Source of the DNA: Treponema sp.
GTDB lineage: Bacteria > Spirochaetota > Spirochaetia > Treponematales > Treponemataceae
DNA: 64,000 nt
Assembly: GCA_024699235.1 (NCBI GenBank)
Contig: JAILPY010000175.1
Span: 10,873 to 74,872 of the forward strand
Direction: 5' to 3'
Shown here: positions 2,952 through 39,806 of the stretch, one piece after another
Numbering within the stretch: the stretch's first letter is position 1
How the letters are laid out: each line of letters begins with the position of its first letter
Program-made: the position numbers and the translations under genes
The notes under the pieces: generated by a model
What the model was told of the DNA's origin: nothing
Databases searched by the model: none
What the model saw: the letters and a program-made list of their open reading frames with translations, nothing else

Positions 2952-3125
2952 AATGAAATCTCCTGCGTTTATAAAGTCTTTTAGGCTTTTATTATTAACC
3001 TGATGTCTTTAATATAGTGTAAGTTGCATTGCAGTTCATGAGCTGTTTTTAAGATGCTGATAAGAAGGTTCTTAGAATTTATTTTATAAACCTGTAACTA
3101 TTGAATAATCCTAAAGTTTTTTTTA

Positions 3126-3980
3126 ATGCAACTATTTTCTTTTACTGTATATGCTGTTATGTGTGGTAGATTTTATATTCAAGCATTTGTTCTTGCCTTA
3201 TTCTTTTTGCCGCTTACAGGCTGTGTCTCTAATAAAGTCCAGAAATTGCCTGTTGCCTTTAATATTGAAGATTCAGAATGGTCAGATAGGGAAAAAATTC
3301 TTCCTTGGAAAAATTATTCTGATAATTGCAGGATTTCCCGCAGCCTGTTTAAAGAAACAGGTAAATCGTTAAACTATTATATTTTTAAAGACAGCAAAAA
3401 TAAAATCATATACCTTATATTTGAAGACTCTCATAGTATTTCTGACTGGGTAAATGACTTTGATTATGTTGCTCTGTCTTATGAGCATGCACCATATTCT
3501 ATAACGGCTCATGGCGGATTTGTAAAGGTCTGGCAGTCTGGAAGTGAAAAGGTTATGAAGGAATTTGAAGAGGCTATTGCAGAAAATCCTTCGTATGAAT
3601 TGGTTATTACTGGGTGGAGTATGGGCGGTGCTTTTGCTCATTTTGCTGCAGAAGAGTTAAACTGGAAGACCCGCACAGAGAAGGCGGATCCAGATACCGG
3701 TAAAAAAGTTCTGCTCATTACTTACGGTTGTCCCCATCTTCTTTATGGAAGGCCGATGTCTGAATATTTTGCCAGGTGTGTAAAGGCTAGCTATAATTTT
3801 GCGCATGTCAAGGATGGATTCGCACGGCTGCCGCCTGAATCATGGGGCTTTTTTATAGAAAACCGCATAGAAATAGGGCAGAATGATCATAGCAGTAAAA
3901 GTCCTCATGTACGATATGGAGAAAAGGAACTGTATGGCAGCATTCATATTAACGACACTTACATTCAGACAGATGAATGA
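3126..3980 (+). CDS. Lipase class 3 family lipoprotein (start may be ATG 3159)
   Basis: Lipobox-like LPLTGC; AHGGF; ITGWSMGG (GxSxG); TYGCP; DGFARLP. Confidence 0.8.
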   Translation: MQLFSFTVYAVMCGRFYIQAFVLALFFLPLTGCVSNKVQKLPVAFNIEDSEWSDREKILPWKNYSDNCRISRSLFKETGKSLNYYIFKDSKNKIIYLIFEDSHSISDWVNDFDYVALSYEHAPYSITAHGGFVKVWQSGSEKVMKEFEEAIAENPSYELVITGWSMGGAFAHFAAEELNWKTRTEKADPDTGKKVLLITYGCPHLLYGRPMSEYFARCVKASYNFAHVKDGFARLPPESWGFFIENRIEIGQNDHSSKSPHVRYGEKELYGSIHINDTYIQTDE

Positions 3981-4721: not shown

Positions 4722-5693
4722 TTACATTGAATATTTTTGTATAAAGGCTTCTGTTTCTGCAAGCGTAGGCAATGCTGGAATGGCCCCTCGTTTTGTTACG
4801 CACAGTGAGGCAACCGCATTTGCAAAAGAAATGTCTTTTTCTATTTCTTCTTTTGTAAAATCCAAAGGATTTTCTCTTCTTGTAAGGCGGTACAGAAGTC
4901 CTCCGTTAAAGCTGTCTCCTGCTCCAGTTGTGTCTGCAACCTTTACTTTAGGCACTCCAAGTTCTCCGCAAAAACCTTGCTTTGCTGCATAATAAACTCC
5001 TTTAGAGCCAAGAGTAATCATTACAAGAGACGGTCCTAAGGAAAGAATCTCTTTTGCACCTTCTTCATAAGAAATGTCTTTTCCAAACAGAAGGGCGAGT
5101 TCTTCATCAGAAACCTTTACGCTGTCTGCCATCGGGAAAATGCTTTTCATTAAAGGAATTGCATCCTGCCTTCCGTGCCACAGGTTTGCCCTGTAGTTTG
5201 GGTCATAAGAAATAAGGCCTCCTGCTTTTCTTACAGTTTCTATTGCTGCCATTGTCGTGCTCTTTGCAGGTTCGTCTGTAAGGGATAGAGAGCCTATGTG
5301 AAGTATTCTTGCCTGTTCCAGCATAGCTGTGTCTAAGTCTTCTGGCTTTATCTGCGTATCGGCTCCTGGATTACGGCAGAAACTGAATGTCCTTTCTCCG
5401 TTCGGGGCAAGGCTTACGAATGCCAGCGTCGTGTGCTGGGTGTCGCTGTAACGCATTCCGCTTGTGTCAACATTCAGTTCATTCAAAACTGCACGTATGT
5501 CTTCGCCAAATGAATCATGGCCTGTCATTCCTATAAAAGCGCCTTTTCCTCCTAATTTGACAACTGCCGATACGCAGTTTGCAGGAGCTCCTCCCGGATT
5601 CTCTTCATATAATTTCTTTCCGTCAGCATTTGTTCCGGAATATGTAAAATCTATAAGGATTTCTCCTAGTGCGACAACATCATATTTTTTCAT
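4722..5693 (-). CDS. PfkB-family carbohydrate kinase, probable fructokinase
   Basis: GEILIDF, NPGGAPAN, YDPNYR and DTTGAGDSF PfkB signatures; last gene of a sucrose-type operon. Confidence 0.88.
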   Translation of the reverse strand: MKKYDVVALGEILIDFTYSGTNADGKKLYEENPGGAPANCVSAVVKLGGKGAFIGMTGHDSFGEDIRAVLNELNVDTSGMRYSDTQHTTLAFVSLAPNGERTFSFCRNPGADTQIKPEDLDTAMLEQARILHIGSLSLTDEPAKSTTMAAIETVRKAGGLISYDPNYRANLWHGRQDAIPLMKSIFPMADSVKVSDEELALLFGKDISYEEGAKEILSLGPSLVMITLGSKGVYYAAKQGFCGELGVPKVKVADTTGAGDSFNGGLLYRLTRRENPLDFTKEEIEKDISFANAVASLCVTKRGAIPALPTLAETEAFIQKYSM

Positions 5694-8646: not shown

Positions 8647-10461
8647 TTATTGTATGTTTTCTTTTAACCAACGGACTTCATAAGGTTCTAATTCCTGGGC
8701 CAGATGGTTATCGAATATTCTGCCTGTAAGTAAATCAGTACTGTTTTCTGACCAGGCATCAATCATGAATCGGGCGGGACTGTCAGAGAAATTTATTACT
8801 ACATGAATAGTATCCCTTCTGAATGCAAATACTCTGCTGTCCTGTACGTCATAGAATGTTATGTTTTCTCCTCCCAGCATAGGTTCACTCTGACGTACTT
8901 TTATAATGTCTTTTAAGTAATCTGCAATTTCCTTCTGTGATGCAAATCTAGCAGAATGATTCCAGTCTGTTTTTATTCTATGCACCCATCTGGAATCATC
9001 TCGTTTTGTAGGATCTTCCCTATATGAGTAGTCATTTAATATTGCTTTTTCATCGCCTGCATATAAAAGGGGAATTCCTGGCAAAGCAAATTGGGCTGCA
9101 TACATCATCTTTATGCGTGCAACTGCCATTAACCGCCAGTCAAAGTTGCCTCTCTTTTCTGCCTGTTCAAGGCCGGCCAGGCTTGCCATTGTACCGCAGA
9201 TGCGGCAGTCTCCTGTGGAAGGGTTAAGCTGGAAAGGCTCTCCTGCTCCAAAAGTTCCGTCAAAGCGTCCTGTAAAAAATTTATTAAGGAACTGTCTGTG
9301 CTGATATCCGTTAATTCCAAGCTGTGCTGCATCTTCATCGCTGAAAGTCCAGCCTATGTCATCATGACAGCGAATGTAATTTATCCAGGCACAGTTTTTA
9401 GGGATGTACCACCTTTTCTTTAATGACAGTGTCAGCAGGCGAGTATCTCTTGTTGCTATGGTTGACCAGAATAAAGCCATCTGGAGCGGATTGTAGCTTA
9501 GGCAGCATTCATCCTGATTAATATACTGTATGACCTGATCTGGATGTACGATTGCTTCGCTCTTAAAGTGAAGGGAAGGGCAAGCTATTCGTGCAACATA
9601 CTGAAATGCCTGAATGACTGTGTGTGCCTTTGGAAGGCTTTCGCATACTGTTCCTTTTTCTTTCCATACAAAGGCCAGTGCGTCTAGCCTAAGTACATCT
9701 ACGCCAAGGTTTGCTATAAAAAGCATTTCTTCGCACATTGCGAGGAATACTTCTGGATTTGAATAATTTAAATCCCACTGAAATGAGTTAAAGGTTGTCC
9801 AAACCCATTTCTTCTGCTTTTCAAGATAAGTAAAGGACCCTCTTCTGACTGTAGGAAATATTTCTCGCAATGTAGCATTCCAAGAGTCAACTTCTGACTT
9901 ATCTTTATACATAAAGTAAAAGTTTTTATATTTAGAGTCTCCGCGCAGGGCTTTTTTTGCCCATTCATGTTCATTGCTTGTGTGATTAAATACAAAGTCT
10001 AGCACAAGATGTATTCCATTTTTATGGAATTCCTGTGCGACATATCGGAGATCTTCAATTGTTCCAAGTTTTGGCTGTACGCGGCGGTATGAGCTTATTG
10101 CATAACCGCCGTCATTTTCGCCGTCAGGGCAGTCAAACAGAGGCATGAGATGTACATAGTTTACGCCTAGTTCTTGCAGATAAGGAATCTTGCTTACAAG
10201 ACCCCTTAAGTTTTCTGCAAATAAATCAACATACAGCATTATGCCAACTGTATTTTCTTTTAAATACCATGGGCGGGCTGTACTTTCGCTTATAGCATCC
10301 TCATCATTTTGCTTTAAATATTCAGTGCGTTCAGATGAAGCTTTTTTCATTATTGATTCAAGTCTCCCAAGGATTTTATAAAAATCCCAACGTGAACCGT
10401 ACAAATCATAGAGGCGGGATGTAAGTTCCGCCATATTCTGTTCAAGCTGCTCTTTATACAT
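8647..10461 (-). CDS. Amylosucrase-like GH13_4 enzyme
   Basis: DGGYA, DFVFNHTS, TLREIFP, WVWTTFNSFQWDLNYSNP, LRLDA (nucleophile), KSEAIVHPD (acid/base), CHDDIGW, NPSTGDCR; closely resembles Neisseria amylosucrase motifs as recalled. Confidence 0.88.
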   Translation of the reverse strand: MYKEQLEQNMAELTSRLYDLYGSRWDFYKILGRLESIMKKASSERTEYLKQNDEDAISESTARPWYLKENTVGIMLYVDLFAENLRGLVSKIPYLQELGVNYVHLMPLFDCPDGENDGGYAISSYRRVQPKLGTIEDLRYVAQEFHKNGIHLVLDFVFNHTSNEHEWAKKALRGDSKYKNFYFMYKDKSEVDSWNATLREIFPTVRRGSFTYLEKQKKWVWTTFNSFQWDLNYSNPEVFLAMCEEMLFIANLGVDVLRLDALAFVWKEKGTVCESLPKAHTVIQAFQYVARIACPSLHFKSEAIVHPDQVIQYINQDECCLSYNPLQMALFWSTIATRDTRLLTLSLKKRWYIPKNCAWINYIRCHDDIGWTFSDEDAAQLGINGYQHRQFLNKFFTGRFDGTFGAGEPFQLNPSTGDCRICGTMASLAGLEQAEKRGNFDWRLMAVARIKMMYAAQFALPGIPLLYAGDEKAILNDYSYREDPTKRDDSRWVHRIKTDWNHSARFASQKEIADYLKDIIKVRQSEPMLGGENITFYDVQDSRVFAFRRDTIHVVINFSDSPARFMIDAWSENSTDLLTGRIFDNHLAQELEPYEVRWLKENIQ

Positions 10462-18325: not shown

Positions 18326-19831
18326 TTATTCGTTTCCCTGCTCATCAACCTTTAGAGGGGTGTTCGTAAAGTCATAGCCTATTGTATACATTCTTCTTCC
18401 AGAGAAATAGTCAGTTGTCAGTTTTACGACAACGCCTGAAAGAATCAGCAGAGAAATGATGTTAGGAATTGCCATCAGGCCATTAACGATATCTGCTATT
18501 GTCCATACGGCGCTTACAGTCATATAAGGTCCTATGAATACTGCTATTATATATAGATAGCGATATAGCTTTACAGGGGTCATATTACCCTTTGAAAGAT
18601 ATTCAATGCAGCGTTCTGAATAATAGTCCCATCCAAGAATGGTTGTAAATGCAAAAAGAACAAGACAAATCATAAGGATGAATGAAATTACAACAGGAGG
18701 AATTCTTGGAAGCAGAGTCTGGAATGCTGCGTTTGTCATTTCAAAGCCAGTCAAATTTGAAATTTCTGGCTTTATCAAAAGTCCGATAACTATTGTAAGG
18801 CCAGTCATAGAGCAGATTACGATTGTATCAAAAAAAGTTCCCGTCATGGATATTATTCCCTGCTGAACGGCATGGTCTACTTTTGCAGCGGATGCTGCTA
18901 TAGGAGCTGATCCTAAGCCTGCTTCATTTGAAAATATTCCGCGTGCAATTCCTTTTTGCATGGCAACAATCATTGCACCTATTGCTCCGCCTGCAGCGGC
19001 TTTGAATCCAAATGCACCTTTGAAAATAGATTCAAATGCGGCAAGCAGATAGGAGATGTTGCAAAGCAGTGCAAGTATTGCGAATACTGCATATATAACT
19101 GCCATAAATGGAACGATAACGCTTGCTACATTGGAAATTCTCTTAAGGCCGCCTATGACAACAAGCGCTACAAGAATTGCCAGTATAAAAGACGAAATTA
19201 CGACAACCATTGAATAGTTTCCAATGCCTGGTATTGTAACTGTAGAAAGAGCTGCTTCTCCTGCAGCTGTTTTTGCGAAAGTCTGGATTCCATTTGTTAT
19301 TGAGTTGACTTGACTGAATGTTCCAATTCCAAAAAGTCCTACCATAGTTCCGAAAATTGCAAAGAGGACTGCCAGCAGCTTTCCAAGTGTAGGAAACTTT
19401 GCACCTACTCCTTTTTCACAGGTATAAAATGGTCCGCCCAAAATATGGCCGTCTGATTTTTCTTCGCGGTAATGGATTGCAAGCAAGCATTCTGCATATT
19501 TAGTTGCCATTCCAAGAAGGGCTGCAAGCCACATCCAGAAAAGGGCTCCTGGACCGCCTAATGCAATGGCTGTTGCTACTCCGACAATGTTTCCTGTTCC
19601 AACTGTTGCTGAAAGAGCAGTACATAAAGCCTTAAAGCTTGAAAGTTCTCCGTCTGCGCCGGCTTCACTTTTGCGGAAAATAGACTTTATTGCAAATTTG
19701 AGCTGTGCAAATTGGACTCCTCTTAACTTTATGGTGAGGAATACACCTGTTGCCAGAATGAGGATTATTAGCGGTAATCCCCAAACGAAGTCATCAATGA
19801 CTCCTAGGATAGAATTGATTTTTGCGAACAT
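18326..19831 (-). CDS. Alanine/glycine:cation symporter (AGCS family)
   Basis: ALSATVGTGNIVGVATAI, GGPGALFWMW, RGIFSNEAGLGSAP. Confidence 0.93.
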   Translation of the reverse strand: MFAKINSILGVIDDFVWGLPLIILILATGVFLTIKLRGVQFAQLKFAIKSIFRKSEAGADGELSSFKALCTALSATVGTGNIVGVATAIALGGPGALFWMWLAALLGMATKYAECLLAIHYREEKSDGHILGGPFYTCEKGVGAKFPTLGKLLAVLFAIFGTMVGLFGIGTFSQVNSITNGIQTFAKTAAGEAALSTVTIPGIGNYSMVVVISSFILAILVALVVIGGLKRISNVASVIVPFMAVIYAVFAILALLCNISYLLAAFESIFKGAFGFKAAAGGAIGAMIVAMQKGIARGIFSNEAGLGSAPIAASAAKVDHAVQQGIISMTGTFFDTIVICSMTGLTIVIGLLIKPEISNLTGFEMTNAAFQTLLPRIPPVVISFILMICLVLFAFTTILGWDYYSERCIEYLSKGNMTPVKLYRYLYIIAVFIGPYMTVSAVWTIADIVNGLMAIPNIISLLILSGVVVKLTTDYFSGRRMYTIGYDFTNTPLKVDEQGNE

Positions 19832-19869
19832 CAGTTCACCTCGAATAATTATGGAATAAAATTTTAAAC

Positions 19870-19898
19870 ATTATATAGAATAAAAGTTGCTGTTTCAA
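19870..19898 (-). promoter_or_regulatory. sigma70 promoter of the AGCS gene
   Basis: TTGAAA-17-TATAAT. Confidence 0.7.
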
Positions 19899-20038
19899 TA
19901 CTTGAAAGTTATCCCTAAAATGAGCAAGGAGAGTTTAGCCTGCTTGTCTGCTCAACGTTGTAAAAATTACTTGAGCTGCTAATTATAAATTTTCATTGTA
20001 AGCAATTTCACCTGTCTTATTGCTAAAATTATCTTGCA

Positions 20039-20154
20039 CAGTGCATATAATCGTTTAGCGCAGTGCATATAATCGTTTAATGCAGTGCATATAATCGTTT
20101 AACGCAGTGCATATAATCGTTTAACACAGTGCATATAATCGTTTAACGCAGTGC
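20039..20154. repeat. Tandem array of a 22-bp unit (5 full copies plus a partial; degenerate flanking units)
   Basis: CAGTGCATATAATCGTTTAACG-like units start at 20039, 20061, 20083, 20105, 20127, with a partial at 20149; differences are confined to the last 3 nt; no spacers. Confidence 0.97.
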
Positions 20155-20326
20155 GTAAAATTATCAAATTCACTGTGGTAAATCGAAAAAGTCGTTGAGC
20201 AAATTTTTATATTGCTAAAAAACACCTTTTTTTGTTCTTGCTATGTGGACACCCATATTGGGGTGCTTGTTTTTAGTAAAAATTCTCCGTATGGTTTGGT
20301 TAATATAAGTCCTCTCTTTTAACTAA

Positions 20327-20355
20327 TAGTCAAAAACGCTAAAAAATGCTATATT
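20327..20355 (+). promoter_or_regulatory. Internal promoter of the R-M cassette
   Basis: TAGTCA-17-TATATT with a TG extension. Confidence 0.5.
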
Positions 20356-20386
20356 TTATTTATAAAATTTATTTTTGGGTGGGAAA

Positions 20387-21700
20387 ATGCATTTTACCAA
20401 ATCTATTAAATTTATAGATTTATTCGCTGGAATCGGTGGAATTCGTAAAGGATTTGAACTCGCATGTTCAGACCTTGGTATAGAAACAGAATGTGTTTTT
20501 ACATCTGAAATAAAGACTTATGCAGTCGATGTATTAAAACAAAATCATCCAAACGAATGTATTAACGGTGATATTACAAAAATAGAAACTTCCGAAATCC
20601 CAGATTTTGATTTTTTGCTTGGAGGTTTCCCTTGTCAGGCATTTTCATCAGCTGGTAAACGGCTTGGATTTGAAGATACTCGAGGAACTCTTTTTTTTGA
20701 AGTCGAAAGAATCCTTCGCGATAAAAAACCAAAAGGATTTATTCTTGAAAATGTTGAAGGATTAGTAAACCACGACAGAAAGAATCCAAAAGATAAAATC
20801 GGAAGAACACTTTCTATAATCTTGGAACATTTGACGGCTCTTGGTTACAAAGTTAATTGGCGAGTCTTGAATGCAAAAGATTTTGGTGTTCCGCAAGATA
20901 GAAAACGTATTTATATTACAGGAACATTTTCAGAAATTCCTGACTTACAAGATTTTGAAACGGTAAATTCAACACTTTCGGAAGTCCTTGAACATGGTTT
21001 GCCTGTGTCTAACAGTAAATTTGTAAATCTTGTTCTCTCACACTATTCTGTAAACCAGCTTTATGGAATGTCTATAAAGGATAAACGAGGTGGAGAAAAT
21101 AATATTCACAGTTGGGATATCGATTACAAAGGTAAAACAACAAAACAGGAGAAAAAATTCCTAAACTTACTTTTAAAAGAAAGACGAAAAAAGAAATGGG
21201 CTGTTGAGTATGGTATAGATTGGATGGACGGTATGCCTCTTACAATCGATATGATTCGTACTTTCTGTAATCCCAACAATCTTGAAGTCATGCTTGAAGA
21301 TTTAGTTTCAAAAAAATATCTCAAGAAAGAGCATCCAAAAAGGAAAGTAGGAAACAAAAGAGTTCAAGATGAATCTTTACCGCTTGGTTATAATATTGTT
21401 GCTGGCAAAATGTCTTATGAAGTCGCAAAGGTTTTAGACCCGAACGGAATTGCTCCTACTCTTGTAGCAATGGATATGGAGCATTTGTTTGTTGGCGATA
21501 ATGGTGGAATTAGAAAATTGTCATTAAGAGAAGGTTTACGGCTTTTCGGTTATCCAGATGATTTTAAATTTAATGTGTCACAACAAGACGGTTATGACTT
21601 GCTTGGCAATACAGTTGTAGTTCCTGTGATAAAGCAAGTTGCTCTTCGAGTTTTAAAAATTTGTGCAGCGGAGAAAAAGAATGAAAGTGAATGCGCTTAA
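20387..21700 (+). CDS. C5-cytosine DNA methyltransferase, M.NlaIV/M.NgoBV-like (predicted GGNNCC)
   Basis: FIDLFAGIGG (motif I), GFPCQ (IV), ENV (VI), PQDRKR (VIII), LGN (X); the variable region KDKRGGENNIHSW…GIDWMDGMPLT matches M.NlaIV as recalled. Confidence 0.9.
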   Translation: MHFTKSIKFIDLFAGIGGIRKGFELACSDLGIETECVFTSEIKTYAVDVLKQNHPNECINGDITKIETSEIPDFDFLLGGFPCQAFSSAGKRLGFEDTRGTLFFEVERILRDKKPKGFILENVEGLVNHDRKNPKDKIGRTLSIILEHLTALGYKVNWRVLNAKDFGVPQDRKRIYITGTFSEIPDLQDFETVNSTLSEVLEHGLPVSNSKFVNLVLSHYSVNQLYGMSIKDKRGGENNIHSWDIDYKGKTTKQEKKFLNLLLKERRKKKWAVEYGIDWMDGMPLTIDMIRTFCNPNNLEVMLEDLVSKKYLKKEHPKRKVGNKRVQDESLPLGYNIVAGKMSYEVAKVLDPNGIAPTLVAMDMEHLFVGDNGGIRKLSLREGLRLFGYPDDFKFNVSQQDGYDLLGNTVVVPVIKQVALRVLKICAAEKKNESECA

Positions 21701-22409
21701 AGTATTTGAAAAATTGCTTGATGAAGATAAATTGCTAGAAATTGAAGGGCAAATAAAATTCTTCTTGGGTGATGTAGATATAATCGTCAAACAAAAAGAT
21801 GTTGTTGGAAATATAATTCAAGAGTGGTTGCAAGGCTGGATGGATAAACGGGGAATTGAATATGCTTTAAATGACAATACTCAAATGCCTCCAGATTTTT
21901 TTTTAAATCCAAAAGATAAAACGACCGATTTGCTTGAAGTAAAAGCCTTTAACCGATCTGCAAGTCCGGGATTTGATATTGCAGATTTTCGAATGTACGA
22001 AGAAGAAATTATTGAAAAACCTTATATGCTCAATGTCGATTATATTATTTTTGGTTATGATATGAGTGATGATGGTGTTGTAACAATAAGAGATTTATGG
22101 CTCAAAAAAGTCTGGGAAATTACCCGCAGAATGGAAGGTTGGTCTATAAACCTGCAGGTAAAGCAAGGGGTTGTACATAAAATTCGTCCAGGAGTTTGGT
22201 ATAGCGACAGACCGGGAAATATTCCTATGTTCAAAAGTATGGAACATTTTATTTCCGCAATTGAAGAAGCTGTATATCAAAATCCCAAAACACATGAATC
22301 TGCTGCAACTTGGAAAAAGAATTTTGTTGATAGTTATAGAAAATTTTATGGTGTTAAATTGGACATTCCAAGATGGCAAGAAATAGCCTCTCAATATGAA
22401 GTAAAATAA
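21681..22409 (+). CDS. Type II restriction endonuclease, NgoBV/NlaIV family
   Basis: KQKDVVGNIIQEW, PPDFFL…LEVK (PD-(D/E)xK), PGFDIADF, QVKQGVVHKIRP; overlaps the MTase 3' end by 20 bp; GGAG Shine-Dalgarno. Confidence 0.85.
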   Translation: MKVNALKVFEKLLDEDKLLEIEGQIKFFLGDVDIIVKQKDVVGNIIQEWLQGWMDKRGIEYALNDNTQMPPDFFLNPKDKTTDLLEVKAFNRSASPGFDIADFRMYEEEIIEKPYMLNVDYIIFGYDMSDDGVVTIRDLWLKKVWEITRRMEGWSINLQVKQGVVHKIRPGVWYSDRPGNIPMFKSMEHFISAIEEAVYQNPKTHESAATWKKNFVDSYRKFYGVKLDIPRWQEIASQYEVK

Positions 22410-22410
22410 T

Positions 22411-22474
22411 CACATAACAAAAGTTCAAAGTCGATACAGACTCAAGGTCTGTGCGGTTTAACTCATTGCTATGC
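22411..22474 (+). other. attC-like recombination site (about 63 bp)
   Basis: R'' CATAAC, spacer AAAA, L'' GTT(C)AAA…TACAGA, loop, TCTGTG…TTTAAC L', spacer TCATT, R' GCTATG. The bulged C22426 corresponds to the conserved extrahelical G of the bottom strand. Confidence 0.72.
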
Positions 22475-22644
22475 AGTTAAATGTTAAAAAGCAAAATTTC
22501 TAAAAAGTATATGCAAATTATTTTTGACGTTGACCAGAATAAGTTTATGCGTCAGAATGAATTTCAAGGATATTTCATAACTGCCCATTTTCTGGCGGAA
22601 GCAATGTTAATGATAATCCTGTATAAAAATGGAGTCTAGTCATA

Positions 22645-23172
22645 ATGAAGATTGTTTTTTTAACAATTCTGATGATTTTTGCCTTTAATTTTTGCTTTGC
22701 TCAGGAAAAGGTAAATTCATGTATGCTCCAAGGCGAATGTTGGGCTTGCAAAATTTCAGCTCCTGATGGATGGGTTTTAGATCAGGAAAGCTTTTCGCAG
22801 TATGGCATTTCTGGATTGTTTTATGAAGAAGGAAAGGCTTTGGGAGGCTCTACTCCAATAATATATGTAAATAGTGAAAAGTTGAGCAGAGATACGGATG
22901 CTTCCTTAAAGCGATTTATAAAATCAGATTTAGGCAAGTATGAAAAAAAAGGTGCTTCTGTAAAGGCTGTAAAATTAGAAGGCGTTACAGATAAGCGGAT
23001 AGACTGTTATAGTATTGAGACAGGCAGAAGTGCTGAGCTTTGCGCTTACACTAGATTCAAAAATGTCTGTTTTTTAATAGTTCTTACGGCAAATACTGCT
23101 GATGGAATTAGCAGAAACATATCTAATATGGAAGAACTTATTAATAATATGGAATATATGGAAAGAAATTGA
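22645..23172 (+). CDS. Hypothetical exported protein
   Basis: Signal peptide (…FCFAQ), GGAG Shine-Dalgarno, 175 aa. Confidence 0.7.
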   Translation: MKIVFLTILMIFAFNFCFAQEKVNSCMLQGECWACKISAPDGWVLDQESFSQYGISGLFYEEGKALGGSTPIIYVNSEKLSRDTDASLKRFIKSDLGKYEKKGASVKAVKLEGVTDKRIDCYSIETGRSAELCAYTRFKNVCFLIVLTANTADGISRNISNMEELINNMEYMERN

Positions 23173-37880: not shown

Positions 37881-39806
37881 TTAGGATAATTCAGCAAGTA
37901 TTTCCCATCTTTCATAATCAGATTCCAGTTTTTTGCTTATATTCTTGTATTCATTTCCTGCTGCCGCTGCTTTTTCATAATCGCTGCTGCCCATATCTTC
38001 TTCCAGGACAGATTTTTTCTGTTCAAGCTCCTCAATTTCAACTTCAAGGGCTTCAAATTCTTTCTGCTCTTTGTAAGTTCTCTTACGGGGCTTATTATCA
38101 TTGCGGCTTGCATTCTGTTCAGAAATCTCCTTTTGCTTTTCTGCTTTTGCTGCGCTTTCTTCAGCTTCCTTTTCTGCAATCCTCATTTTACGGTATTCAA
38201 TGTATTCAGAGCATTTGCCTACATACCCTGAGACGCTTCCGTCATCTTCAAGAATAAAAAGCGTATCTGCAACTTTATCCATAAAATAACGGTCGTGGCT
38301 TACAATTAAAAGGCATCCTTTAAATCCCATGAGGAACTGCTCAAGGATATTCATTGTAAAAATGTCAAAGTCATTTGTAGGCTCATCAAGAATCAAGAAG
38401 TTTGGGTTGCTTAGCAAAAGCCTCACCAAAAACAGACGCTTGCGTTCTCCTCCGCTAAGGCTGCTTAAGGGCGAGTACTGTATCTTCCCTTCAAAGCCAA
38501 ACTGTTCCAGGAAGAGAGTAGCGCTCAATGTTGTTCCGTCATTCATCTGCATCACTTCTGCCGCTTCCTTTACATATTCCAGGACAGTCTGATTTAAATC
38601 TTTAAATGCTGGGTTTTGCTGGTAATAGGCAATGGATGTATTCTGGCCCATTACGATAGAGCCTTCGTCTGGCTGCATAGACTGGGTAATAATGTTTAGC
38701 AGTGTTGATTTGCCGCTTCCATTATCCCCGAAAATTCCAATCTTTTCGCCCTTATTAAATGTATAGCTGAAATTTTTCAGTACTGGAAAGCTTTTCCCGT
38801 CAGCCTGTTCGGCATATCCTTTTTGAAAATTTTTTGTGATTCCGTGCAGTTCAAGAATCTTTCCACCCAGCCTTCTTCCTTCTACTTCAAAAGTAAAGCC
38901 TTTGTCTGCCTGGAATTTTTCCCTGTTAATAAGGGCCATGTCATGCTGTATGCGGGCTTTTGCCTTAGTTCCTCGTGCACAAGGTCCCCTCATAAGCCAG
39001 TCTCGTTCTACGCGAAGCACTGATTCTATCCTTCGTTCTGTATTTGCTTCTATTTCCGCTTCTGTTTCTTTCTTTTCCAGATAGAGTGAATAGTTTCCTA
39101 TATAGAGCTTTACTTTGTTTCGGGCAAGTTCATATATATGATTGCATACAGCATCTAGAAAGTATCGGTCATGAGTGACCATTAAAACTGCTCTCTTTGT
39201 TTCTGCAAGATAATCTTGAAGCCAGCTTATTGTTGTTATGTCCAGATGGTTTGTTGGCTCATCCATGAGCAAAAGCTTTGTATCTTCTACAAGAACCTGT
39301 GCCAAAGCAACCTTTTTTATCATTCCTCCGGAAAGTTCACCCATAGTTCTGTTCATGTCCCGAATGCCCAGGACTGTAAGGATGGATTTTACCTGTGCCT
39401 CATAATTCCATAAGTCCCCATTTTCCATTTTAATGGTCAGGGCATCGAACTGCTTTTGCAGGGCATCATTTATGCCTTGTTCCATTTGAGAGCAGACTTC
39501 TTCATATTGTCTGATAATTTCAAGTTTTGGAGATTTTGATTTGAATATATGAGCTTTTATAGTGTCGTCTCTGTTATACTGTGGATTCTGAGGAAGATAA
39601 GAAACTCCTGAACTTTTGTTTATGACTACAGTACCGTCATCTGGCTGCAGGACTCCTGCTATTGTATTCAGCAGCGTAGACTTTCCTGTTCCGTTTCGTC
39701 CTATAAGGGCAACCTTGTTACCTTCGTCAATGCCAAATGTTACGCCGGTAAAAAGAGGCTGTTCCCTTCCTATTTTTGTCAAATTATTTACAGATAACAA
39801 ATTCAT
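37881..39806 (-). CDS. ABC-F family ATP-binding protein (Uup-like)
   Basis: Two NBDs (GRNGTGKS/LSGG/DEPTNHLD and GDNGSGKS/LSGGE/DEPTND), no TM segments, C-terminal coiled coil. Confidence 0.92.
   Translation of the reverse strand: MNLLSVNNLTKIGREQPLFTGVTFGIDEGNKVALIGRNGTGKSTLLNTIAGVLQPDDGTVVINKSSGVSYLPQNPQYNRDDTIKAHIFKSKSPKLEIIRQYEEVCSQMEQGINDALQKQFDALTIKMENGDLWNYEAQVKSILTVLGIRDMNRTMGELSGGMIKKVALAQVLVEDTKLLLMDEPTNHLDITTISWLQDYLAETKRAVLMVTHDRYFLDAVCNHIYELARNKVKLYIGNYSLYLEKKETEAEIEANTERRIESVLRVERDWLMRGPCARGTKAKARIQHDMALINREKFQADKGFTFEVEGRRLGGKILELHGITKNFQKGYAEQADGKSFPVLKNFSYTFNKGEKIGIFGDNGSGKSTLLNIITQSMQPDEGSIVMGQNTSIAYYQQNPAFKDLNQTVLEYVKEAAEVMQMNDGTTLSATLFLEQFGFEGKIQYSPLSSLSGGERKRLFLVRLLLSNPNFLILDEPTNDFDIFTMNILEQFLMGFKGCLLIVSHDRYFMDKVADTLFILEDDGSVSGYVGKCSEYIEYRKMRIAEKEAEESAAKAEKQKEISEQNASRNDNKPRKRTYKEQKEFEALEVEIEELEQKKSVLEEDMGSSDYEKAAAAGNEYKNISKKLESDYERWEILAELS

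Follow-up and report, generated by a model that had tools for sequence, protein, structure and literature searches.

A gene cassette that stands alone in the chromosome of a rumen Treponema carries the triplet GCT at both of its junctions, in place of the canonical GTT core, and the question is whether the two cytosines reflect an altered recombination specificity or have separate origins. The locus was analysed within a 64-kb window, that is, the whole stretch of DNA studied here, which lies on a 99-kb contig of a metagenome-assembled genome (MAG) of 210 contigs and 93% completeness. An earlier note on this DNA had placed GCT at 20240-20242 and 22468-22470, and our reading of the sequence agrees. 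The 8-mer TTGCTATG occupies positions 20238-20245 at the left junction and 22466-22473 at the right junction, both on the forward strand, in the contexts ...ttgttcTTGCTATGtggacaccc... and ...aactcaTTGCTATGcagttaaa..., respectively; the wider sequence is ...ttgttcTTGCTATGtggacacccatattggggtgc... for 20232-20268 and ...ggtttaactcaTTGCTATGcagttaaatg... for 22455-22485. The 8-mer is not rare, as it occurs 6 times in the window where 4.6 copies would be expected, and what exceeds chance is not its count but its placement, on the cassette-start side at the left and in the attC R' box at the right. The left copy is located immediately 5' of the conserved cassette-start motif of the clade (TGGAC followed by a hairpin). 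The sequence TTGCTAAAA, which had been reported to recur upstream, is indeed present at 20020 and 20212, but only at the frequency expected by chance (4 copies versus 2.97 expected).

The cassette and its attC site

In order to delimit the attC site, a covariance model, R1, was built from 20 Treponema attC sites of the host genome and three other genomes, with the window site left out. Its consensus fold contains 23 pairs, 12 of which show compensatory changes in the seed. The model matched positions 22411-22475 of the forward strand over its full length (1-66) with 65.2 bits and an E value of 5.7e-14, which confirms the earlier view of the element as a genuine integron cassette that has a genuine attC site and, on both sides, a non-canonical core. 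A search of 19800-22700 against Rfam matched no family. The site begins 2 nt past the stop codon of the endonuclease gene described below and consists of R'' CACATAAC (22411-22418) and a spacer, L'' GTTCAAAG with bulged bases (22423-22430), a central stem-loop (22431-22455), L' GTTTAAC (22456-22462) with the spacer TCATT, and R' GCTATGCA (22468-22475), in which G 22468 is the final base of the cassette. The AAC of R'' is present at 22416-22418, and the R' box reads GCT at 22468-22470 instead of GTT. The C in TTCAAA and the next G are unpaired both in the consensus structure and in the fold of the window site; such unpaired bases in the L'' arm are typical of attC sites and mark the recombined strand.

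The effect of the cytosine on the hairpin was calculated with DNA energy parameters, the GTT form being obtained by in-silico substitution. The bottom strand adopts an identical fold with GCT or GTT, at a cost of about 2.5 kcal/mol (-10.0 versus -12.5 kcal/mol in the chromosomal form, and -11.8 versus -14.3 kcal/mol in the circular form), which bears out the earlier proposal that a bottom-strand G-T wobble lets the hairpin fold. R'' CACATAAC and the first bases of the cassette, GCTATGTG, are likewise complementary at seven of eight positions, the eighth being a G-T wobble on the bottom strand. In the top strand, GCT introduces a C-A mismatch, with a loss of about 3.8 kcal/mol (-8.8 versus -12.6 kcal/mol).

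The cassette proper extends over 2228 bp of the forward strand (20241-22468), bounded by standard G/TT crossover points, and a 94% identical copy at another locus (L016) aligns with window positions 20238-22430. It opens with the clade consensus G(T)TATGTGGAC and a short hairpin, of which the window version, CACCC-ATATTG-GGGTG followed by a T run (20250-20275), was scored as terminator-like. The promoter-like sequence TAGTCA-17-TATATT, with a TG before the -10 hexamer (20327-20355), is a putative promoter of the cassette's own, and the block in which it lies is kept in the alignment of L016 and a further copy, L038. Two genes follow on the same strand. The first (20387-21700) encodes a C5 cytosine DNA methyltransferase of 437 aa (PF00145, E 2.6e-83, full length; PADLOC MTase_II, E 1.5e-108), and the second (21681-22409), which overlaps it by 20 nt, encodes a type II restriction endonuclease of the NgoBV family of 242 aa (PF09564, E 1.7e-151, 238/238 profile positions; PADLOC REase_II, E 3.5e-120). 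This adjacent, full-length pair constitutes a type II restriction-modification (R-M) system.

Even at E values up to 10, R1 found no other attC site in the 64-kb window, and tblastn found no similarity to IntI there. With a single attC site, and neither an integrase nor a further att site in the window, the segment 20241-22468 is a complete integron cassette standing alone, a SALIN in the term of Loot et al. The insertion point is intergenic, upstream of a sodium:alanine symporter gene; the left neighbours encode this symporter, an EAL protein and a cation efflux protein, and the right neighbours an orphan secreted protein of 175 aa, an SGL lactonase and a U32 peptidase.

A transposon-style duplication of an 8-bp target was also considered for the repeated 8-mer and rejected: seven of its eight bases fit the attC R' consensus TTGTTATG, and the bases from core position 4 onward (ATG...) covary with the R'' of the cassette in other copies.

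Core triplets in the genus and the host integrase

The earlier note had proposed, as one possibility, that the integrase or the attC family is divergent and that its core specificity is relaxed or altered. We therefore tabulated the R' cores of 301 genomes of the genus with one full-attC pattern in which the middle core base alone was varied. GTT accounted for 678 of the 700 matches (97%), in 143 genomes and with 0 control hits, GAT for 19 (2.7%), GCT for 2, one of which is the window site, and GGT for 1; GCT and GGT are thus sporadic, and the three variants jointly gave 1 control hit. A stricter pattern retained about 201 GTT sites versus 1 genuine GCT site. No GCT family emerges from these counts, which speak against an altered specificity, as does the GTT found at all the other attC-family junctions read in the host genome and at both junctions of the copies of this R-M cassette in two other Treponema MAGs. 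In the whole host genome R1 gave 14 sites; the 13 further matches are on C18, C22, C28, C51, C124, C151 and C195, small contigs that carry array fragments.

The second GCT site (G167:C3, L058:6268-6333) is a genuine attC within an array, in which GCT is followed by a cassette start; the attC of the following cassette is truncated, which is suggestive of decay. The GAT core belongs in part to one cassette, starting ATATGGTGAGCC... (ATATGGTGAGCCAAAAGTCAATATG) and devoid of a start hairpin, that was found in at least nine genomes of the genus (L062, L063, L066, L067, L070, L074-L077 and L080). Because this cassette recurs behind different attC sites, GAT can be regarded as a working variant.

These counts can be compared with the assays of class 1 IntI1 by Frumerie et al. 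(2010, PMC2811028). Recombination of a wild-type attC with attI1-GCT was unaffected, attC-GCT with wild-type attI1 was reduced about 6-fold, and GCT with GCT was reduced 30-fold, the least efficient second-position combination assayed; GAT was a preferred secondary site, and identity between the partners was required at the first base (G) only (PMC2811028). By these counts the Treponema attC family is canonical, and it ranks the tolerated variants in the order reported for IntI1. As GCT is unusual yet within the known tolerance of IntI1, no altered specificity need be invoked; the window site represents a known process in a variant that is rare but tolerated, and the analysis gave no evidence of a new recombinase specificity. 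The mutants of Frumerie et al. share with the window the same second-base T-to-C change in the triplet, and such sites stay recombinogenic, but they were engineered in the laboratory for a class 1 system, whereas the window site belongs to a natural spirochaete chromosome. It would thus be a natural case both of cassette insertion outside an integron and of a GCT triplet, which have up to now been recorded chiefly in laboratory work, and it comes from a spirochaete lineage with an as yet unassayed integrase. The match between the genus census and the tolerance of IntI1 suggests that cleavage-site rules are conserved across very distant integrases.

No intact intI was found in the host MAG, which, being 93% complete, may have left such a gene unassembled. 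The best match to TIGR02249 reached 93.7 bits against a cut-off of 265 and covered model positions 256-315 on C28, and tblastn with the full-length IntI of G002, a relative with an intact integron, aligned only residues 335-418, also on C28. At about 2958-3310 of this contig (G000:C28, L001/L052) the last ~84 residues of IntI are left, with unrelated genes upstream, which looks like the deletion of most of intI. Downstream of the remnant and on the same strand there is an attI-like junction (...ggaatattt/GTTATGTGGACGCCC...) followed by cassettes, a layout that mirrors the intact integron of G002; a complete integron, with intI, attI and array, was not found in the MAG. Among 18 genus relatives sampled, 4 have a full-length IntI. 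With the integrase lost or unassembled, the cores are without maintenance.

These features agree with the Treponema chromosomal integrons described by Wu et al. (2013, PMC3607928) in the architecture of attC, in the loss of the integrase in some lineages, and in the arrangement of intI, attI and cassettes on one strand, as seen in G002 and C28. Unlike in those integrons, the window cassette lies outside the integron.

Origin of the two cytosines

In integron recombination the bottom strand alone is exchanged, between the G and the next base, and in the standard model the bases after the G are those of the downstream cassette. In order to assign the bases of the two junctions, we compared the window with other copies of the R-M cassette. 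With one genome taken per species, the same endonuclease (88-97% protein identity) was found in about a dozen ruminant-gut Treponema or Spirochaetaceae MAGs, and the close R-M relatives carry titles as rumen or ruminant-gut Treponema MAGs. The copies at L016 and L038 are about 94% identical to that of the window over the whole cassette (94-95% in the coding part), and only ~79% identical to it in the 147-nt leader. In L016 the cassette lies within an array, between two attC sites, with the previous attC joined to it as ...CCAGTT/GTTAGGCGGACGCCC... and its own attC ending ...GCAGTT/GTTATGAC..., whereas in L038 it has the sole attC in 8.7 kb and is inserted just past the stop codon of a gene, with the junctions ...aataaga/GTTATGTGGAC... 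and ...CCAATT/GTTATACTGAC.... GCT is thus not characteristic of the R-M cassette as such, since all four junctions are GTT.

In both copies R'' complements the start of its own cassette (CGCCTAAC/GTTAGGCG in L016 and CACATAAC/GTTATGTG in L038), and the rule also holds in cassettes 2-5 of the G002 array. The corresponding window pair is CACATAAC/GCTATGTG, the cassette starting G-CTATGTG. These data place the crossover before core position 4, and the bases beyond core position 3 belong to the cassette at the left junction (CTATG from 20241, after TTG of the chromosomal target up to 20240) and to the target at the right junction. Because R'' covaries with the cassette start, the left C can be assigned to the cassette's own R' box as a derived T-to-C change. 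The right CTATGCA can be assigned to the target, because neither a cassette-start hairpin nor a further attC was found downstream of the right junction. The two cytosines thus differ in origin, and only one of them need be a mutation. The earlier argument that GCT must predate the integration, as two T-to-C mutations would be unlikely, therefore fails in its premise, since a crossover at G/TT gives the two cytosines separate owners. As the leader is only ~79% identical between copies, a single substitution in it is unremarkable.

The history that we consider rather probable is an integrase-mediated insertion at an R'-like secondary site, in which the right C was native to the target and the left C arose by later drift. 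The R-M cassette would have come from the pool of Treponema chromosomal integrons and entered a secondary chromosomal site instead of attI or an array. The target, TTG/CTATGCAG, would have resembled the R' box TTG/TTATGTG at seven of eight positions. At the right junction the G of the cassette would have been joined to the native CT of the target, with no mutation required, and at the left junction the G of the target would have been joined to the cassette start. This start would originally have been TTATGTG, the exact complement of R'' CACATAAC, in which the T has since become C, most likely by drift after immobilisation and less likely shortly before the transfer.

Such an insertion resembles the SALINs of Loot et al. 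(bioRxiv 10.1101/2022.09.11.507474), who showed lone cassettes and efficient insertion at genomic attG sites experimentally. One cassette with one attC, far from integrase and array, has its own promoter (putative in the window), and it is bounded on the left by the target G and the cassette start and on the right by attC and the target. The attG consensus for IntI1-3 is GWT, with hotspots that have CRGM at +6 to +9. In the window target as deduced here, G/CTATGCAGT, positions +6 to +9 are CAGT, so that CAG at +6 to +8 is shared with the hotspot motif; in contrast, the core of this target, GCT, has a C as second base and lies outside GWT, and the left junction has a C as well. The host integrase also differs, being of Treponema type and now truncated.

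The departure from GWT counts against the favoured history, as does the fact that the cited integrase behaviour is that of class 1 IntI1 and not of a Treponema IntI. The native target had to be deduced from the junctions, as neither an empty site nor an excised circle was recovered from metagenome scans or species representatives; among the latter, the nearest symporter has only 78% protein identity and is not adjoined by a right-flank gene. Moreover, the agreement of the derived cassette base with the target base would still be due to chance, with a probability of the order of a percent, although every scenario in which the two cytosines are uncoupled contains such a coincidence.

It is also conceivable, but unlikely, that the circular cassette already carried GCT and that the integrase recombined GCT with GCT at a GCT target. 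The G167 junction shows that another genuine GCT attC can precede a cassette start, the GCT bottom strand still folds, and IntI1 does recombine this combination (PMC2811028). However, that combination is the one reduced 30-fold with IntI1 (PMC2811028), GCT makes up only two of 700 cores, one being that of the window, and the truncated attC of the G167 cassette points to decay. Furthermore, the closest copies of the cassette start with TT, and an exact scan of metagenome contigs for the 25-mer of the window cassette start found nothing.

Quite improbable is a history in which the two cytosines are coupled, either by insertion through the 8-bp identity, as microhomology or with the assistance of homology, or by mismatch correction of a TATG heteroduplex, one base being copied to both junctions. 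The 8-bp identity at both junctions is what such coupling would leave, and the uncoupled scenarios all need a coincidence. The L038 copy may be cited in the same sense, since the 43 nt after GTT are ~88% alike at its two junctions. Against coupling, IntI1 needs identity at the G only, and the second base is not compared from one partner to the other (PMC2811028); moreover, left of the crossover the L038 junctions share only the G. The 8-bp microhomology suggested in the earlier note is not needed for the integration, and would be one possible form of such coupling. In a more general and slightly less probable form, the base after the crossover G would be copied to both products in Treponema-type 'same-orientation' integrons, or their integrase would prefer partners identical at that base. 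Copying, if true, would imply a heteroduplex or repair step that is absent from the current model of single-strand exchange and replication, and coupling would leave lone cassettes with a short target-matched repeat, of which the L038 near-repeat is a possible second example.

We give little credence to pure decay of an immobilised cassette, with both junctions GTT at insertion and each T changed to C independently. The truncation of intI, which leaves the cores unmaintained, and the fast divergence of non-coding cassette DNA would favour it, but two identical substitutions at equivalent positions would be required, and the other attC-family junctions read in the genome keep GTT. Slightly less credible still is the remnant of a small decayed array with an eroded attC or attI at the left junction. 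Arrays of the clade do decay, as seen from truncated attC sites in G000:C22 and G167, and the DNA upstream of the window junction shares the sequence TTYACTGTGG with the attI region of C28; against this, a search that admitted E values up to 10 gave no upstream attC signal, the window showed no similarity to IntI, and the left flank is an intergenic region with tandem repeats that adjoins a housekeeping symporter gene. An assembly or consensus error at both bases, which a MAG of 210 contigs might suggest, is most improbable, as the same error would have had to arise at two places, both of them in unique sequence in the middle part of a 99-kb contig.

Variation of related cassettes and of the insertion region

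The window cassette (20241-22468) and those of L016 (1093-3330) and L038 (2550-4797) combine one R-M pair with three different attC sites, the cassette start agreeing with the attC in every case, and therefore the gene module and the recombination ends have been re-associated. An anti-phage system, here a type II R-M system, packaged as a cassette has a parallel in known defence-system cassettes (bioRxiv 10.1101/2024.07.02.601686); the window cassette differs from them in being a two-gene spirochaete cassette that occurs in several attC frames and as lone insertions. An R-M system is thus spreading among rumen Treponema as a cassette able to leave the array.

The lone R-M cassette of L038 is situated between convergent genes. 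The near-repeat at its junctions (2550-2592 versus 4790-4832) contains a hairpin with a 10-bp stem followed by T7, and represents either a cassette-start-like terminator in the target or a duplicated target sequence; when the native target was sought in relatives of its genome, all matches were weak and distant. For the lone attC sites in G222, G240, G092 and G107, the candidate starts at the left junctions were indistinguishable from chance matches.

Two further junctions deviate from the usual layout. On the minus strand of L069 (about 2603-2646) the junction CAGTTGCTTATGTAGAC reads G-C-TTATGT, which is a one-base insertion in the core and not a substitution. In G000:C22 (about 8829-9046, L051) an attC lacks its R' box, and the expected GCAATT/GTTATGTGGAC is found ~217 nt further on, as if an insertion had happened within the attC spacer.

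Around the window cassette, a 22-bp tandem repeat of 5.6 copies with 93% matches is located just upstream of the insertion site (20039-20161). G000:C109 carries a diverged cousin of this array at about 38180-38290, in an unrelated intergenic region that precedes a sugar ABC binding-protein gene, and the array was consequently rejected as a part of the integron. On the right side, the 175-aa protein (22645-23172) has a signal-peptide-like start; neither Pfam nor PADLOC gave a match to it, and no homologue turned up among 25 relatives or when metagenomes were scanned.

Finally, a hairpin after R' (GTTATGTG) was observed in 33 of 41 distinct attC junctions of the rumen Treponema clade (window 20250-20275, L016, L038 and L050-L080); no mention of it was found in PMC3607928, where the word 'terminator' has no match. 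It consists of GAC or CAC, a stem of 5-7 bp and a (G)CACT(G) loop, and is in some cases followed by a T run, which makes it terminator-like. The stems vary in a compensatory manner (GCGCCC/GGGCGC, CAGGC/GCCTG, GGCGC/GCGCC, CAGCCC/GGGCTG and CACGCC/GGCGTG, with CACCC/GGGTG in the window). Placed between an upstream promoter and the cassette gene, this hairpin could, to judge from its sequence, extend the recombination site or act as an insulator.
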